Virus record (IMG/VR): IMGVR_UViG_2728369187_000007
Location: 1-20,139 of that record
Length of the DNA stretch: 20,139 nt
From: a virus
Taxonomy: Duplodnaviria > Heunggongvirae > Uroviricota > Caudoviricetes
Direction: 5' to 3' (one strand)
Shown: in pieces, positions 2 to 14,536 of the stretch
Numbering within the stretch: the first letter of the stretch is position 1
Layout of the letters: every line of letters begins with the position of its first letter
Position numbers and translations under genes: made by a program
The notes under the pieces: model-generated
What the model saw: the letters and a program-made list of their open reading frames with translations, nothing else
Databases searched by the model: none
Told to the model about the DNA's origin: nothing

Positions 2-1282
2 TTAATTTTTCATTGCTTCGTTATGGGGCATGGTTGGGGCAAACTCGCTTAACTGTGTATTTAACAAAGCTACCTGTGCATTATTGTTTTCAGACATCCA
101 TTTTCCGTATACCTGAAATACCATTTGCGCATCTGCATGGCCCATCTGGTTTGCTATAAATGCCGGGTTAGCACCAGCTGTCAGCGACCAGCAGGCATAA
201 GTATGTCTCGACTGATATGATTTTCGATGGCGGAGTCCGGCACGTTTTATCGCTGCGTCCCACATCTGCCTTATTGAGTCAACGGTAAAATGGTCACCAT
301 AATTTTTTACTCTCGCTGACACTTCAGGTTGAAAAACAAAGGTGCATTTATGTTTTTCTGTTCTGCCATACTCTCTGAGGTGAACATCAATGATATGCTC
401 TTTGCTCAGTCTCGTTAATGTCATCTGACTCCGGAGAGCGTCGATTGCTGGCTTAATAAGATGAATGACCCGATTGGTTCCCGCCTGTGTTTTTGGTACC
501 GTGAAACGGTCTTTTGCTAAATTTCTCCTGATCATCATTGTTCCATTTTTCAGATCTATGTCCTCCCATCCAAGTGCACACAGCTCACCAGGGCGAACGC
601 CAGTATAAACAGAAACACACCATAAATTTTTGGCTTGCTGATTTCTGCACGCATCGATAAGACGGATGAATTCCTCCCGCGAAAGAGGATCCGGAATGGT
701 TCTTGATTCCTTTAATGGCGAGATCCCCTTAAACGGGTTATCTGCCAGGTAACCGTTATCAACACCAAACTGGAACACGGCGTTAAGATTTGTCATGTAA
801 TTATTTACAGTTACAGCCGATCTCCCTGGTTGTGTAACAATATAGTTACTTTTGGGGCTCTGGTATCCAGTCAGTAGCTCTTTACGAACCTCCAGTAATT
901 TTTCTTTATTAATCGATGAGGCAAGATTTTTTTCACCGATTATGCTCAGGATATTTTTGATGACGGCACGGTATGTGTTGAGTGATGTTTTTGCGACTTC
1001 AGTTTCTTTCAGTGCCAGAAATTTTTCAGCCAGTTCTTTTATGGTTAAATCTTGTCGGGTCTCACCAAATTTTTCCAGATTGCGTGAGGAGGGAAACTGT
1101 TTTGCATAGTCGAAAACACCAGTTTTTATTGCGTAACAAACAGAGGCGCGTAGCTCACCTGCAACGCGCCTGTTTTTTGCTGTGTCAGGAACCCCCAGGT
1201 TTTCCCTGACTCTTACGCCTTTATAAACAAACCAGATACGTAATTTCCCTCCATGGTTTTCCACGCCTGTCGGATATTTCAT
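2..1282 (-). CDS. int: Tyrosine recombinase (phage integrase)
   Basis: C-terminal catalytic signature (SRHTYACW box II, then the tyrosine in VFQVYGKW). Last gene of the leftward operon. Start chosen at the Met at 1282 (MKYPTG...), which has an upstream GAGAAG; the ORF-track start at 1297 has no RBS. Confidence 0.85.
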   Translation of the reverse strand: MKYPTGVENHGGKLRIWFVYKGVRVRENLGVPDTAKNRRVAGELRASVCYAIKTGVFDYAKQFPSSRNLEKFGETRQDLTIKELAEKFLALKETEVAKTSLNTYRAVIKNILSIIGEKNLASSINKEKLLEVRKELLTGYQSPKSNYIVTQPGRSAVTVNNYMTNLNAVFQFGVDNGYLADNPFKGISPLKESRTIPDPLSREEFIRLIDACRNQQAKNLWCVSVYTGVRPGELCALGWEDIDLKNGTMMIRRNLAKDRFTVPKTQAGTNRVIHLIKPAIDALRSQMTLTRLSKEHIIDVHLREYGRTEKHKCTFVFQPEVSARVKNYGDHFTVDSIRQMWDAAIKRAGLRHRKSYQSRHTYACWSLTAGANPAFIANQMGHADAQMVFQVYGKWMSENNNAQVALLNTQLSEFAPTMPHNEAMKN

Positions 1283-1316
1283 TTCAACTTCTCTCATTAG
1301 TTAGTGTGGCTTTTAG

Positions 1317-1568
1317 TCAAGTAAGATGACGTCTTGGTCTTGCTGATGCCTGGCGCTCAATCCAGCGATCAATTTCTTCCAGGTTGTAAAAGCATGGACT
1401 GTTATCCCATGGCATACCGTCATGAGCGACATGCTTATATTCCCTTCCTTCCATAAACGATTTTTCCCGGGCCTTTTTTAACGTACCTTTTTTTATTCCT
1501 TTCAGCGCAATTAACTGCTCTTCGGATACCCATTTGCCGGGAGAGACAATCATGATTACTTCGCTCAT
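1317..1568 (-). CDS. xis: Excisionase-like small DNA-binding protein
   Basis: 83-aa basic protein immediately upstream of int on the same strand; size and position typical of a prophage excisionase. Family not verified. Confidence 0.55.
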   Translation of the reverse strand: MSEVIMIVSPGKWVSEEQLIALKGIKKGTLKKAREKSFMEGREYKHVAHDGMPWDNSPCFYNLEEIDRWIERQASARPRRHLT

Positions 1569-1640
1569 CGATTTCTTTATCTCTTACATCAGACGAGCGC
1601 CGGTTGCAGAATACCAGTCACAACCGGCGACAGTTGAACA

Positions 1641-4205: not shown

Positions 4206-4397
4206 TTAAAGACCTGCCGGGATTTCGATATTATCCTGGTGAATAACTTTATCGACCGGGTAACAGTTACCGGGAATTTTCTGTTCGGTTGCTGCAGTCA
4301 TACACTCCTGCATTGTCCTGTTAACACTGTCTGCAATATCAACTGGCTCTCCGGAAACAAGAAAAACTGTCAGAACAAGCGCAAATGCTGAATTCAT
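4206..4397 (-). CDS. ydfD: YdfD-like small lysis protein
   Basis: 63-aa product from the internal Met (MNSAFALVLTVFLVSG...), hydrophobic N-terminus. Its ATG overlaps the dicB stop (ATGA). Matches the Qin dicB-ydfD order and length as I recall them. Confidence 0.6.
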   Translation of the reverse strand: MNSAFALVLTVFLVSGEPVDIADSVNRTMQECMTAATEQKIPGNCYPVDKVIHQDNIEIPAGL

Positions 4398-4582
4398 TGT
4401 GTACATCCTTTTGGCATCAGACGTAAACGAGCCAGCATTGAAACAATGCATATTTTATTTAATAGCTCCCGTTCTTGTTTTCTCTTGTTAATGGCATCTT
4501 CAGTAAATACAGGGTTACTGATAGTGACACCAATTTCAAAACAACCTTCAGACGTATTAACGTTTGGTAATAACGTTTTCAT
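4394..4582 (-). CDS. dicB: DicB cell-division inhibitor
   Basis: 62-aa product from the internal Met (MKTLLPNVNTSEGCFEIGV...LMPKGCTQ), matching DicB as recalled. Lies just downstream of DicF on the same strand, as in Qin. Confidence 0.75.
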   Translation of the reverse strand: MKTLLPNVNTSEGCFEIGVTISNPVFTEDAINKRKQERELLNKICIVSMLARLRLMPKGCTQ

Positions 4583-4751
4583 TATCGCGTCCTCAACAAT
4601 GAATTTTGTGATGCAGTGCCTGGTGCCTCCAGGTGACGTTAACCAGTTAACAATTAACGCCGGATACAGAGAATCCACCCATAACACTGTTTTTGGTTTT
4701 AACTGTTCCGCGTGCGCTTAGCCGCATTCACCGCATCACAAAATTCACTTT

Positions 4752-4809
4752 AAAAATGGCGGCAGAGCAGTCACGGAGTAAAACTGATACCGCCAAACGT
4801 CACCAGAAA
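4752..4809 (-). ncRNA. dicF: DicF small regulatory RNA (ftsZ-targeting sRNA of Qin-type prophages)
   Basis: Reverse complement reads UUUCUGGUGACGUUUGGCGGUAUCAGUUUUACUCCGUGACUGCUCUGCCGCCAUUUUU, near-identical to the DicF sequence as I recall it. Ends in a GC stem plus U-run; located between the leader and dicB. Confidence 0.75.
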
Positions 4810-5084
4810 ATTGATAACAGAGGGCGTTGCAGCGGGGTTGTCACTTAAGCGTATGGTCAACCTGACAACTCGGTGTCCTCAACGGGGAAGGAATAACCCC
4901 GCCATACTTACCGCCGCGCCATTTCGCGGGTTGCCACAACCGGAAGCGCACGGTCGAATTAAATTTAACGACACCGTACAGTGAGACGAACTTCGCCGTG
5001 CGCTTTCGTGTTGTGTGCCTGCTTTTAACCACGTCAGGCGAGGTGGTATCCTTCTTATCCCGAATAACCAAGAAGGAAATCTAT

Positions 5085-5285
5085 ATGACTAAAGAAGAAT
5101 TTGTCTCTTATATTTTTGATAAAACGGTTGAAATGTATGCCGCTACTTACGGGTCCTGTAATCCTCTGAATAAACCAGAGGGGAAAGATGATTTCGACAA
5201 AATTTACCGCTTCTTGGAGGACCGCTATATCAAAAGGTTAGAGGACGCAGGGATCAAATCCCCAGTGAAGTCACCATTGTCCTGA
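5085..5285 (+). CDS. Hypothetical 66-aa protein (moron-like, opposite strand to the early operon)
   Basis: ATG at 5085 preceded by GAAGGA; possible promoter TTTAAC-17-TATCCT upstream. AT-rich. Converges on and overlaps the 3' end of the 5254..5631 gene by 32 bp. Confidence 0.4.
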   Translation: MTKEEFVSYIFDKTVEMYAATYGSCNPLNKPEGKDDFDKIYRFLEDRYIKRLEDAGIKSPVKSPLS

Positions 5286-5631
5286 GAACTTGCAGGACGT
5301 CATGATCGTAACTTCCATCCAAACCGCGACGGCAAATTGCTTCTCGTATTACCGGAAGCAGTTCGCTGGAAATCTCGGTGCATATTTCACCTGATAATAC
5401 GCCTGGCTCAAGTGAGAATATTGGTGAACTTACGGTCTTGGTCTCGACAGTTTCAGAGTCAGTGCCAACATTATAAAGCTCAACGAAAGCGGTCTTGATT
5501 TTCCGGGCCAGATCTTTTGCTGGCTCGCTTGCAATATCTTTCCCGATTTCTCGCAGCACAGAATGCAATGTATGAGCTGCTGTTTTCTGTACATCAGACG
5601 GTAAATCTTTAAATTCCATCGTCAGCCTCAT
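5254..5631 (-). CDS. Hypothetical acidic protein (125 aa) of the early leftward operon
   Basis: ATG overlaps the stop of the upstream gene (ATGA coupling); an alternative start at 5619 has a GAGG RBS. No motif recognised. Confidence 0.5.
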   Translation of the reverse strand: MRLTMEFKDLPSDVQKTAAHTLHSVLREIGKDIASEPAKDLARKIKTAFVELYNVGTDSETVETKTVSSPIFSLEPGVLSGEICTEISSELLPVIREAICRRGLDGSYDHDVLQVLRTMVTSLGI

Positions 5632-5951: not shown

Positions 5952-6359
5952 TTATTTTATTGATTTATTTTTACGCGCTTTAAGCATTTCTTCGAAGAGT
6001 TTGTTGAAGTTTTCTACTCTTGCGCGCATTTCAGACAGCAAGGCTTCCTGCTCGGAAGATGGAAGAGCATCGAATAATTCGATCAATTCTTTGTGGTTGG
6101 GAGTTAGCTCTGTTTCCACATGAAGTTCTTGTGCCGGCACTGGTGCCTTGTCTTCGTCACCAAACATTAGCCATGTAGGTGAGCACTTCAGAGCATCCGC
6201 TAAAGCAAACAATCGTTTTCCGACTGGCTGGGTTTCGTCTCTTTCCCATTGTGAAATTGTGACGTGAGCAACCCCAGCGAGGCGCGCAGCTTCTCGTTGT
6301 GTTAAGCGTAATTCTTTTCGTCGCGCCAGAACTCGCTGGCCTAGGGTTCTTGTATCCAT
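5952..6359 (-). CDS. dicA: DicA-like HTH (XRE-family) prophage repressor
   Basis: N-terminal HTH (LTQREAARLAGVAHVTISQWE). C-terminal half (CSPTWLMFGDEDK...EMRARVENFNKLFEEMLKAR) closely matches DicA as recalled. Divergent from the cro-like gene. Confidence 0.8.
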   Translation of the reverse strand: MDTRTLGQRVLARRKELRLTQREAARLAGVAHVTISQWERDETQPVGKRLFALADALKCSPTWLMFGDEDKAPVPAQELHVETELTPNHKELIELFDALPSSEQEALLSEMRARVENFNKLFEEMLKARKNKSIK

Positions 6360-10384: not shown

Positions 10385-10656
10385 CTTACATCCATCTCCA
10401 TTAAGAAATCTTGCTATTGTTCTTATGGATCGTCTTTCTGACTGATTTCATATTGGCGAGGTAAAGGTAGTTAAGTAGAATGGCTGCGGGTGCTTGAGGC
10501 TATCTGCCTCGGGCATGAACACCAAAGGCAGATAGAGAAAAGCCCCAGTTAACATTACGCGTCCTGCAAGACGCTTAACATTAATCTGAGGCTCAATCTA
10601 TGAACGGCAAATCTAGGTTAGCCTCTTACGTGCCGAAAGGCAAGGAGAAGCAGGCT

Positions 10657-10812
10657 ATGAAGCAGCAAAAGGCGATGTTAATCGCCCTGATCGTCATCTG
10701 TTTAACCGTCATAGTGACGGCACTGGTAACGAGGAAAGACCTCTGCGAGGTACGAATCCGAACCGGCCAGACGGAGGTCGCTGTCTTCACAGCTTACGAA
10801 CCTGAGGAGTAA
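10657..10812 (+). CDS. hokD: Hok/Gef-family membrane toxin (HokD/RelF-like)
   Basis: 51-aa product MKQQKAMLIALIVICLTVIVTALVTRKDLCEVRIRTGQTEVAVFTAYEPEE with the single TM helix and conserved Cys of Hok toxins. RBS AAGGAGAAG upstream of the ATG at 10657. Confidence 0.85.
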   Translation: MKQQKAMLIALIVICLTVIVTALVTRKDLCEVRIRTGQTEVAVFTAYEPEE

Positions 10813-12986: not shown

Positions 12987-13346
12987 ATGCGTATAGAGTT
13001 TGTTTTGCCTTATCCGCCGACGGTGAATACTTACTGGCGACGTCGTGGCAACACATATTTTGTATCAAAAGTCGGTGAGCGTTATCGCCGTGATGTGGCA
13101 CTAATTGTTCGCCAGCAGCGGTTGAAATTAAACCTGTCCGGAAGGCTGGCAATAAAAATTATTGCAGAGCCACCGGATAAGCGCCGCCGCGACCTGGACA
13201 ATATCCTGAAGGCACCACTGGATGCGCTGACGCATGCCGGACTTCTTATAGACGACGAGCAGTTTGATGAAATCAATATTGTGCGCGGACTGCCTGTTCC
13301 TGGTGGTCGGCTGGGGATAAAAATCACAGAACTGGAGTGCGCATGA
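12987..13346 (+). CDS. rusA: RusA-family Holliday junction resolvase
   Basis: 119 aa with the conserved PDKRRRDLDN catalytic region and a GGRL...I motif near the C-terminus. RBS AAAGAGG. Confidence 0.85.
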   Translation: MRIEFVLPYPPTVNTYWRRRGNTYFVSKVGERYRRDVALIVRQQRLKLNLSGRLAIKIIAEPPDKRRRDLDNILKAPLDALTHAGLLIDDEQFDEINIVRGLPVPGGRLGIKITELECA

Positions 13347-14032
13347 ATAACCAGTATTTACAGTTTGTGCGTGAGCAGCTCATTATCGCTACCGCTGATT
13401 TGAGTGGGGCAACAAAAGGTCAGCTTGAAGCCTGGCAGGAGAATGCCATGTTTGATACAGGGCGTTACAGGCGTAAAAAAATCCGGTACCGCGATGAAGT
13501 GACTGGAAGAATGATAACGCGGGATAGTCCACCGATACCGGGAAAACAATCACTGGCGAAAGGCTCATCAATTGCTCTGGTAAGTCAGGTTGAGTTTTCG
13601 ACATCATCATGGCGACGGGCAGTTCTGTCTCTTGAAGAACATCATAAAGCCTGGTTGTTGTGGTGTTACAGCGGGATTATTTGTTGGGAATATCAGATCG
13701 CGATAACACAGTGGGCGTGGAATGAATTTAATACTCAATCCGGTACCAGAAAAATTGCAGGGAAAACGCAGGAACGCCTGAAAAAATTAATCTGGCTGGC
13801 GGCGCAGGCAGTAAAAGCAGAACTTTTTGGTGGGGAAGGTTATGAATACCAGGAGCTGGCATTACTGGCGGGAGTGACAACTAAAAACTGGTCCAAAACA
13901 TTTACTCGTCACTGGGTTGCAATGAAACACATTTTTCACCGACTTGATAGTGAGGCTTTATTGTTTGTAATGAGAACACGTTCAAAACAAAAGGCGGCAT
14001 TTTCAAAGCAAAGTGTTGCAAAAGTAGATTGA
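13343..14032 (+). CDS. Late-gene antiterminator Q-like protein (putative)
   Basis: 229 aa; ATG overlaps the rusA stop (ATGA). Last gene before the promoter/terminator/lysis region. Assignment is by position, not by a recognised motif. Confidence 0.5.
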   Translation: MNNQYLQFVREQLIIATADLSGATKGQLEAWQENAMFDTGRYRRKKIRYRDEVTGRMITRDSPPIPGKQSLAKGSSIALVSQVEFSTSSWRRAVLSLEEHHKAWLLWCYSGIICWEYQIAITQWAWNEFNTQSGTRKIAGKTQERLKKLIWLAAQAVKAELFGGEGYEYQELALLAGVTTKNWSKTFTRHWVAMKHIFHRLDSEALLFVMRTRSKQKAAFSKQSVAKVD

Positions 14033-14226: not shown

Positions 14227-14302
14227 GGCCCTTTAGCTCAGTGGTGAGAGCGAGCGACTCATAATCGCCAGGTCGCTGGTTCAAATCCAGCAAGGGCCAC
14301 CA
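14227..14302 (+). tRNA. tRNA with anticodon CAT (elongator Met or Ile2-type)
   Basis: 76 nt. 7-bp acceptor stem GGCCCTT/AAGGGCC, D-arm GCTC...GAGC, anticodon loop CTCATAA, T-arm GCTGG-TTCAAAT-CCAGC, encoded CCA. G1-C72 pair argues against an initiator. Confidence 0.85.
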
Positions 14303-14303
14303 G

Positions 14304-14380
14304 CCGCCACTAGCTCATCAGGAAAGAGCGTCAACCCTTTAAGTTGAGTGTGCGAGGTTCGAGTCCCCGGTGGCGGTCCA
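14304..14380 (+). tRNA. tRNA-like gene, anticodon TTT (Lys) as read, atypical anticodon loop
   Basis: 77 nt. Perfect 7-bp acceptor stem, D-arm GCTC...GAGC, anticodon stem TCAAC/GTTGA with loop CCTTTAA (C at position 33), T-loop TTCGAGT with one A-C mismatch in the T-stem, encoded CCA. Confidence 0.6.
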
Positions 14381-14382
14381 GT

Positions 14383-14458
<76 letters not shown>

Positions 14459-14461
14459 TAT

Positions 14462-14536
<75 letters not shown>

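Follow-up and report, generated by a model that had tools for sequence, protein, structure and literature searches.

The DNA between positions 4,810 and 5,084 of the window (the whole stretch of 20,139 nucleotides that we analysed) almost certainly specifies a non-coding, structured RNA read from the minus strand. Very probably this RNA is the processed leader of the small RNA DicF, whose long hairpin, which we call stem C, would serve as the entry site for RNase III, as suggested by the cleavage seen in the K-12 homologue. Within the leader lies a domain of 115 nt, which is probably a conserved pseudoknotted RNA that stands outside Rfam and, within the literature searched, has not been described. 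DicF is among the oldest known bacterial sRNAs, and the processing of its leader is textbook material; the processing part of our account is largely known biology in K-12, and its added value lies in the domain, the fold, and the spread of both to phage P1 and to cassettes that do not contain DicF. The apparently new observation is that a discrete folded RNA makes up most of the leader, and that this RNA is more widely spread than DicF itself and also present in the Pban leader of phage P1. The domain merits its own family model under either of the two functional readings that we weigh below.

The window is the immunity and early region of a lambdoid prophage. DicF is recognised by Rfam model RF00039 on the minus strand (4808..4757, 73.4 bits), and its 53-nt extent, which we take from the K-12 sequence, agrees with the position of the terminator T-run, at +69 after helix P1 of the domain. 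Given the strand of DicF, the interval 4810-5084 comes before it in the RNA only if transcription runs along the minus strand; the original prediction, which placed a leader upstream of DicF, gave no strand and is right for the minus strand. Along that strand we find, in order, a dicA-like repressor gene, a DUF1391 gene, a gene of 121 aa, the leader, DicF, dicB, ydfD, an exonuclease and an integrase. That is, the leader sits within the leftward early operon, 3' of the DicA-type repressor gene and 5' of dicB and ydfD. To the right of the region are a P22-Cro-like gene, YdaT, RusA, the Q antiterminator, four tRNAs and a hok/sok locus. The DUF1391 and P22_Cro assignments are Pfam matches, and the operon annotation is supported by a locus that is 99.8% identical (L001). 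The region is shared at 99.6% identity by mEp460_ev081, a deposited phage genome record. Of 5426 complete E. coli genomes, 4320 have a match to the DicF locus, and a single genome can hold as many as nine copies.

The closest well-studied relative is the untranslated ydfC-dicF region in the dicBF operon of the K-12 Qin prophage. It occupies an equivalent position beside DicF and dicB, in the same orientation, and shares with our leader both the long stem and the RNase E junction. Positions 4700-5026 of the window align at 92% identity with the K-12 ydfC-dicF-dicB interval (92.5% against a K-12-type strain), and the loci of K-12 and O157 both match it at 92%. The two prophages differ upstream: the one studied here lacks ydfB and ydfC, whereas in K-12 ydfC follows the matched interval, and beyond 5026 a plus-strand gene of 66 aa and the gene of 121 aa stand in place of ydfB and ydfC. 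The features of the region and its surroundings are collected in Table 1.

Table 1. Features of the leader and its surroundings, in window coordinates.
Feature	Position	Strand	Basis or remark
Tyrosine integrase	2-1297	-	
Exonuclease, 823 aa	beyond ydfD	-	
dicB	start MKTLLPNV inside ORF 4394-4687	-	
DicF sRNA (53 nt) with intrinsic terminator	4757..4809	-	Rfam; just outside the region; the payload of the proposed cassette
AU-rich 16-nt linker GCCCUCUGUUAUCAAU, unpaired	4810..4825	-	unpaired or weakly paired in the 190-nt fold
Mechanical ORF, 57 aa	4811-4984	+	TTG start
Conserved structured RNA domain, 115 nt, helices P1-P5	4826..4940	-	covariation
Helix P1	GUUGUGGC 4933-4940 / GCUGCAAC 4826-4833	-	
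Helix P2 (CCGCG-AAAUGG-CGCGG)	4925-4929 with 4914-4918	-	
Helix P3, pseudoknot	GUAUGG 4902-4907 / CCAUAC 4851-4856	-	
Helix P4 (CGGGG-loop-CCCCG)	4897-4901 with 4883-4887	-	
Helix P5	GAGUUGUCA 4863-4871 / UGACAACCC 4835-4843	-	
Mechanical ORF, 76 aa	4841-5071	-	TTG start
Invariant GGCGGUAAGUAUGG (ops consensus GGCGGTAGnnTG plus one extra A)	4902..4915	-	non-template strand
Stem C, long imperfect hairpin; predicted RNase III entry site by K-12 homology	4935..5018	-	minimum-energy folds
Upstream region of the plus-strand 66-aa gene, outside the DicF leader	5019..5084	+	conservation in phages without DicF
TGgTATCCT, extended -10-like motif	5044-5052	+	
Inverted repeat over the ribosome-binding site	5049-5056 with 5070-5077	+	
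Plus-strand gene, 66 aa	5085-5285	+	phrog_34441 match
DUF1391 gene, ydfA-like	between the dicA-like repressor and the 121-aa gene	-	Pfam
dicA-like repressor ORF	5952-6359	-	ORFs/annotation
Q antiterminator	13337-14032		right of the region

Judged from the parts that different phages share, the interval 4810-5084 is a mosaic of three units. Phage P1 aligns with 4833-4929 only, in a segment annotated as a "dicF-like region" that lies directly 3' of the C1-controlled Pban promoter; the cdtI and Stx2c phages align with 4818-4940; and SfII and phiES15 align with 4708-4751 and 4999-5099, everything between being absent. On account of this last gap, DicF together with its leader behaves as an insertable cassette. 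The original prediction had taken the whole interval as one leader, which goes too far by some 65 bp; the stretch 5019-5084 is instead the conserved upstream region of another gene. Sequence of this type precedes the 66-aa gene here, SfII_36, and a gene of the ECs_2282 family in O157, and a motif of the TGgTATCCT type also precedes small plus-strand genes in the SfII, phiES15 and O157 prophages, in which the DicF leader is either absent or separated by ydfC. A scan for consensus promoters reports no sigma-70 promoter in 4810-5084, and a plus-strand promoter within 5019-5084 is therefore best called putative. The companion scan for terminators overlooks the DicF terminator, whose loop exceeds the limit of the scan.

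The domain consists of five helices, P1 to P5, of which P3 and P5 interleave, so that the fold is a pseudoknot. Homologues were sought among viral contigs, in one genome per species, and in metagenomes, which together yielded 123 unique sequences; they were gathered via exact anchors inside the domain, and its conservation is to that extent ascertained. With the covariance model R1, 4817-4958(-) scores 169.9 bits, and the window contains no other copy. When 98 distinct homologues are aligned to the covariance model, 95.5% of cells are paired and 14 pairs are changed on both sides, compared with 5.7±1.5 in column shuffles (0 of 500 shuffles reach the observed value). Controls in which the partner column is slid by one to three positions produce 2-7 such pairs, and an independent MAFFT alignment contains 11 of them versus 3.7. 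Helix P5 is the best supported: its two arms read GGGUAACCA/UGGUUACCC in Izhakiella, GGAUUGUCA/UGGCAAUCC in Citrobacter, GGAUCACCA/UGGUGAUCC in the metagenome contig L204, and GUUGCCA/UGGCAAC in phage P1. The stem of P4 occurs in at least eight different versions. Helix P2 exhibits no covariation in the alignment, and its support comes from conservation. Many of the conserved pairs are G-U wobbles (UG:49 and GU:58 in helix P1), which would become A-C mismatches on the plus strand; thus, we conclude that the functional strand is the minus strand.

Between the helices, the junction and loop sequences GGCGGUAAGUAUGG, CACCG and CAGGUUGACCAUNCGC are near-invariant from Erwinia to phage P1. The loop of P4 is usually pyrimidine-rich (UCCU/CUCC), although the motif is absent in L204 and in a second homologue, L262. 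With an anchor placed outside both the core and DicF, the mean majority-allele frequency is 0.958 in the core, 0.920 in DicF and 0.776 in the loop of stem C, where the comparison of core with DicF is biased by the fact that the loci were first found through core anchors. A search of 4600-5400 against Rfam 15 (E<=10) returns DicF and a sub-threshold STnc100 match outside the region, and no family matches the domain; at the gathering thresholds, too, DicF is the sole match. The literature on K-12 pre-DicF that we searched covers its processing; we did not find in it a description of the conserved fold or of a spread beyond DicF loci. Matches in Streptomyces and Blastocatellia from the one-genome-per-species scan, and one viral contig (L048), were discarded as chance. 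A GGTTCAATTCC motif located upstream in Erwinia and Izhakiella had raised the idea of a tRNA-like element, and this was set aside as well: ARAGORN reports no tRNA or tmRNA genes in eight homologous loci, and the region has no tRNA or tmRNA match in Rfam.

In the original prediction the region had been described as GC-rich, and the excess is modest: 52% in 4810-5084 versus 47.5% in the whole window, with 59% reached only in 4817-4958 and 44% in 5021-5084. It had also been called highly structured, which is true in a mild sense, since the folding energy of the minus strand is somewhat below chance (z = -2.3; 4 of 200 shuffles reach an equal or lower energy). The plus strand of the region folds more strongly still (z = -4.4). 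Folding energy alone is therefore weak evidence, and it does not tell the strand. Both of the complementarities quoted as examples are present, GCGGGGTT at 4832-4839 with AACCCCGC at 4895-4902, and CCGCG-CCATTT-CGCGG at 4914-4929. The first of them, a proposed long-range stem, finds no comparative support: it is paired in 85% of cases, a level that 284 of 500 shuffles reach, and it shows no covariation. Its bases belong instead to helices P4 and P5. As for what the structure might be, the prediction offered a processed leader or an additional unannotated RNA element, and both are supported. The former agrees with the K-12 homologue, for which it is already published, and the latter corresponds to the covariation-supported domain between the RNase III cut and DicF.

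In K-12, a stable DicF species of 190 nt has its 5' end made by RNase III, accumulates in stationary phase, and is converted to the 53-nt DicF by RNase E, and there is no internal promoter (Ragunathan et al. 2023, bioRxiv 10.1101/2023.04.14.536235). [quoted passage not shown] 2022. Counting 190 nt back from the 3' end of DicF (4757) leads to about 4945/4946, in the 3' arm of stem C, and by homology the RNase III cut would fall there, which places the 5' end of the 190-nt species 5 nt before helix P1. At the other end, RNase E would generate the DicF 5' end by cutting at 4809/4810, the 3' edge of the linker. The minimum-energy fold of the exact 190-nt RNA, computed with no comparative input, contains helices P1, P2, P4 and P5 together with a 4-bp CGGU/ACCG helix. 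The predicted structure is a four-way junction, in which P3 would form as a loop-loop contact.

Stem C dominates the minimum-energy folds of the region, and its base uses GUUGUG (4934-4939), the very bases that form helix P1. Because the two helices compete for the same bases, cleavage by RNase III should switch this strand from its upstream to its downstream partner. In the lambda-type and the cdtI/Citrobacter-type homologues a long stem before the core is kept, while its sequences differ. Phage P1 has no long stem before the domain; the Pban promoter lies directly upstream instead.

The distribution of the domain bears on its function. It is found in prophages of E. coli, Citrobacter, Trabulsiella, Erwinia, Izhakiella and Serratia, and in the Pban leader of phage P1; in the one-genome-per-species scan, all true matches are from Enterobacterales. 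An intrinsic terminator always lies 3' of the domain, within about 35-115 nt. What stands between domain and terminator varies greatly: at least ten different sequences occur there, and the intervals fall into about 20 clusters, which include DicF, variants of DicF, and several sequences with no Rfam match. Members of the cdtI type and from phage P1 have nearly no seed sequence in this interval. The terminator hairpin of the Erwinia, Izhakiella, Trabulsiella and Serratia members takes in both the Shine-Dalgarno sequence and the AUG with which the next ORF begins. The gene order in Erwinia is cI-like repressor, core, terminator, early genes, and in the cdtI phage the domain likewise lies between a cI-like gene and the early genes. 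A riboswitch-style pairing of the domain with the 5' arm of the terminator was considered and judged unconvincing, as only 4-5 bp could be found by eye.

The explanation that we favour, tentatively and as somewhat short of probable, is that the region, as the minus-strand untranslated 5' leader of pre-DicF, works as a portable cassette for the maturation of sRNAs. Polymerase starting from the repressor-controlled promoter would transcribe stem C, then the 115-nt domain, then DicF, with a partial stop at the DicF terminator. RNase III would cleave stem C at about 4945/4946, and the cut would free GUUGUGGC (4933-4940) from its upstream partner, making it available to GCUGCAAC (4826-4833) so that helix P1 could close. 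The product would be a compact 190-nt RNA, with a four-way junction of P1, P2, P4 and P5 locked by the P3 pseudoknot and followed by DicF, and RNase E would then cleave the single-stranded linker at 4809/4810 and release the 53-nt DicF. The folded domain would define and protect the 5' end of the precursor, and would set a 5'-monophosphate end beside the RNase E site, whichever sRNA comes next. The two cleavage steps are experimental in the K-12 locus, which is 92% identical, and the fold is demonstrated here by covariation.

Besides the synteny, the homology to K-12 with its experiments, the geometry of the 190-nt RNA and the covariation, the observations that speak for a cassette are that a defined RNA 5' end adjoins the domain in each context, by way of a long stem or, in phage P1, of the Pban promoter, and that at least ten different payloads, each ended by a terminator, follow the same domain. 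The conserved parts of SroC- and MicL-type sRNAs are the seed and the terminator. Here, unlike in those RNAs, the conservation of a folded domain upstream equals or exceeds that of the sRNA, and sRNAs with different seeds have this domain in common. The likeness lies in the manner of release: sRNAs of the SroC and MicL type, which are processed from within operons or from 3'UTRs, are released by RNase E from a longer mRNA, with a terminator adjacent (Ponath et al. 2022), and DicF too is freed from a longer transcript by RNase E, beside a terminator. The adjacent Rfam family, RF00039, describes a 52-nt sRNA on the same transcript, and its model ends at the DicF 5' end and does not include the 115-nt domain.

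That scaffolding of this kind is the domain's main job is possible, but we would not call it probable. A simple 5' hairpin would suffice for protection and for placement of the RNase E site, and the near-invariance of GGCGGUAAGUAUGG, CACCG and CAGGUUGACCAUNCGC is left unexplained. Moreover, the nearly seedless members, and the terminators that cover a Shine-Dalgarno sequence and AUG, look more like control of transcription than like production of sRNAs, which counts against the cassette itself. If scaffolding of maturation is all that the domain does, it would account for the way in which prophages exchange the seeds of their sRNAs while the processing module stays constant.

The main alternative, which we rank below the maturation cassette and regard as rather unlikely, is that the element acts in cis, as an antiterminator or against polarity. 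In this case, the domain and an ops-like motif in the non-template strand would modify the elongating polymerase, either directly, in the manner of the HK022 put RNA, or through the loading of RfaH or another host factor. A share of the polymerases would then pass the DicF terminator, resist Rho over the long stretch without translation, and reach dicB, the exonuclease and int. Two features keep this idea alive. The prophage has Q, while searches of the window against Pfam and PHROGs find no N-like or NusG-like gene, and yet its exonuclease and int lie past the DicF terminator; and the element occupies a position like that of nutL or putL, always 3' of a repressor-controlled early promoter, 35-115 nt 5' of a terminator, and ahead of the early genes. 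The members in which the terminator hairpin encloses the start of the next gene argue in the same direction, because there read-through must matter, and the confinement of true matches to Enterobacterales also fits. Against it, northern blots in K-12 show no transcript longer than ydfABC-dicF (Ragunathan et al. 2023). RfaH ChIP in CFT073 has eight targets, none of them in a prophage, although the dicBF-type operon is repressed in culture.

The resemblance to ops is close but imperfect. The essentially invariant GGCGGUAAGUAUGG matches all 10 specified positions of ops once one A is deleted, and among 68 unique metagenome homologues, which a search pattern without this motif had retrieved, it is canonical in 63 and carries a single substitution in the other 5; a true ops occurs in 0 of the 68. 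In the window the corresponding sequence, GGCGGTAAGTATGG, has the extra A before G8 and so departs from the consensus GGCGGTAGnnTG. Recruitment of RfaH requires G8 and the C3:G8 pair, and the substitution G8C abolishes it (Zuber et al. 2018). Given this requirement, the extra A before G8 means that the motif is not a canonical ops.

The resemblance to JUMPStart, whose 39-bp sequence was confirmed in the galF-to-O-antigen position, is uneven, and we treat it as a lead rather than as homology. The 5' half of the domain resembles it when judged against dinucleotide shuffles in the phage P1-type (p = 0.0005), Izhakiella (p = 0.0035), Erwinia (p = 0.015) and cdtI-type (p = 0.03) sequences, but the likeness is not significant for the window (p = 0.27), and neither an nhmmer profile of the 5' half nor covariance model R1 finds a link to JUMPStart. 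The two elements share a non-template GGCGGTA..G..TG motif, a location in an untranslated leader, and the blocks CAGTGCTCT (Erwinia-type) and TAGCTGTTA-GCC (phage P1-type) in the same order. They differ in that the domain has an extra A in the loop of the ops hairpin and an inserted hairpin of 16 nt (P2), and in that the 3' pseudoknot half of the domain has no counterpart in JUMPStart.

With the put sites of HK022 the domain shares its setting, a structured RNA in the repressor-controlled early leader of a lambdoid phage without N, before the terminators, and in phage P1 it is promoter-proximal as putL is. A put site, however, is about 70 nt long, is built of two stem-loops, and has a left and a right copy, whereas the domain has 115 nt, five helices and a pseudoknot, and occurs once per phage: no second copy that could correspond to nutR or putR in the rightward operon was found in the window or in 100 loci. 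Homology to put was rejected after R1 returned only noise on the whole HK022 genome (best match 9.6 bits). The likeness to lambda nut consists of a boxA-like stretch containing GCUCU (GUGCUCUCUU; CGCUCUUUU in L204) that lies 12-20 nt before a 5-bp hairpin, but the loop of that hairpin, P2, is AAAUGG or ACAGG rather than a GNRA-like boxB pentaloop. In the window the boxA-like GUGCGCUU pairs within stem C, and P2 has AAAUGG as its loop. The comparison with nut is weakened by the fact that most members use the boxA-like stretch as the 3' arm of stem C, in paired form.

Should the element control elongation, it would explain how temperate phages without N pass their first leftward terminator, and it would be a new RNA/DNA signal among the few processive antiterminators. 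In its most specific form, which we think rather improbable, the domain would belong to a new class of processive antitermination or anti-Rho elements that depend on host factors only. On these terms, N-less lambdoid prophages, prophages of the cdtI and Erwinia types, and phage P1 might cross the terminator and the untranslated stretches of sRNAs and tRNAs, a suggestion we hold with equal reserve. It is similarly doubtful that those transcripts which stop at the terminator would be put to further use as sRNAs, DicF among them.

A less probable reading still, for which we see a small chance, treats the RNA of about 190 nt, or the domain of about 135 nt that would remain after the RNase E cut, as a structured RNA acting in trans, for example by binding or sequestering a host protein or RNA, with DicF as its detachable 3' module. 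The RNA has defined ends everywhere, an RNase III site or promoter on the 5' side and an intrinsic terminator on the 3' side, and the 190-nt species of K-12 is a stable RNA that builds up in stationary phase. The loop of P4, UCCU/CUCC, resembles an anti-Shine-Dalgarno sequence, but it is this motif that L204 and L262 lack. In conservation the domain equals or surpasses DicF, but those figures are biased by the retrieval of homologues. There is also no known partner, and a stable 5' fragment is without published evidence.

It is very improbable that the structure serves the plus strand, be it as the 5' UTR of the 66-aa gene, as an antisense RNA for that gene, or as an antisense regulator of DicF. 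The plus strand does fold better than shuffles, and a plus-strand gene begins at 5085, but the wobble pairs described above point to the other strand, the orientation of the domain relative to the downstream terminator is fixed in all homologues, and SfII, phiES15 and O157 keep the upstream region of the plus-strand gene without the domain.

The original prediction had seen no credible ORF in the region, and this is borne out. The two ORFs of Table 1 are mechanical ones, and we practically discount the notion that either is a real small gene: both start with TTG, and by eye no Shine-Dalgarno-like sequence is seen upstream of them. Several phage records annotate a hypothetical protein here, and the plus-strand frame is free of stops across the core in 42 of 70 sequences. 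But variation is not concentrated at third codon positions, since among 57 close homologues the variable columns number 28/29/26 and 23/24/25 at codon positions 1/2/3 in the two frames, and 25 of the 57 differ in length within the ORF span, by +1, +4 or -3 nt, where the indels of +1 and +4 break the frame. The core itself occurs in seven different lengths among the homologues, and substitutions compensate across helices. Thus, a conserved frame with synonymous-site variation was sought in the homologues and is absent, from which we conclude that the region is RNA. A Pfam search with the region's ORFs gives no match. PHROG families are built from predicted ORFs, so that a conserved RNA can yield one; the match of phrog_8854 to the 76-aa translation (E = 2e-27) is explained in this way, as a family of mis-called ORFs, and the RNA reading exposes phrog_8854 as probably a spurious protein family.

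The 9-nt sequence CGTGCGCTT occurs as a direct repeat that flanks the cassette comprising the small RNA DicF and its leader, with a third copy lying inverted within stem C, a long imperfect hairpin. Because SfII and phiES15 retain the flanks of the cassette while lacking the DicF-plus-leader cassette itself, this arrangement suggests that the cassette may have been gained or lost through recombination at the repeat. Compared with O157 and K-12, the window is also missing ydfC and its flanks, a block of about 360 bp (2781-3143 in the homologous locus L003). Roughly 10 bp at 5016-5026 match both sides of this block, which suggests that a short repeat was the site of a clean indel.

The core is the conserved 115-nt pseudoknotted RNA domain that lies 5′ of DicF. 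In the two variant loci listed in the Table, a CAAC microhomology marks the junction at which the motif found upstream of the plus-strand gene runs straight into helix P2 of the core. The Shigella copy has, in addition, a degenerate DicF terminator. Members of the Erwinia, Izhakiella, Trabulsiella and Serratia types (L144 at ~4660-4760, L145, L142, L134, L193 and L050) carry AGGAG..AUG UUC UAC CG within the terminator hairpin that follows the core. The start of the next ORF is thus buried in the terminator, and its expression would need read-through.

The stretch between DicF and dicB matches the STnc100 model of Rfam at 34.5 bits, which falls below the gathering score of 47; STnc100 has been tied to the PasD prophage sRNAs (2026 preprint). 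When scored with R1, our covariance model of the core, this stretch yields a weak 7.6 bits, and its counterpart in phiES15 (L007 1817-1961) 17.6 bits, also weak. Since the motifs UGCGCUUC..UUGUGG..GCGG are common to the stretch and to the 5′ part of the core, the two may, judging from their sequences, derive from an old duplication.

The protein family phrog_8854, of unknown function, matches the translation of non-coding RNA (window 4841-5071, minus strand), and it is probably a family of mis-called ORFs across the conserved leader. The 66-aa gene lies antisense within the leftward, minus-strand early operon, with its 3′ end running into the convergent 121-aa gene (overlap 5254-5285).

Table. 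Positions of features in the window and of core variants in two other loci.
Feature	Position	Strand	Remarks
STnc100-like stretch, dicB 5′ UTR	4605-4745	-	sub-threshold Rfam match; directly downstream of DicF
9-mer	4711-4719, 4997-5005, 4944-4952		direct pair and one inverted copy
Extended -10-like motif TGgTATCCT	5044-5052	+	kept in SfII, phiES15, O157
8-bp inverted repeat	5049-5056 with 5070-5077	+	spans ribosome-binding site of 66-aa gene
66-aa gene	5085-5285	+	phrog_34441 match; weak Zn-ribbon match
hok/sok-type locus	10488-10662	+	sok at 110 bits
Four tRNA genes	14227-14533	+	directly downstream of Q antiterminator gene
Core variant, L057	5217-5357		stem C and P1 5′ strand deleted
Core variant, L136 (Shigella flexneri)	1450-1590		stem C and P1 5′ strand deleted

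Whereas dicB is intact in the window, it is interrupted by IS600 at the locus from E. coli strain 720632 (L001 1111-2267; 99.8% identical).
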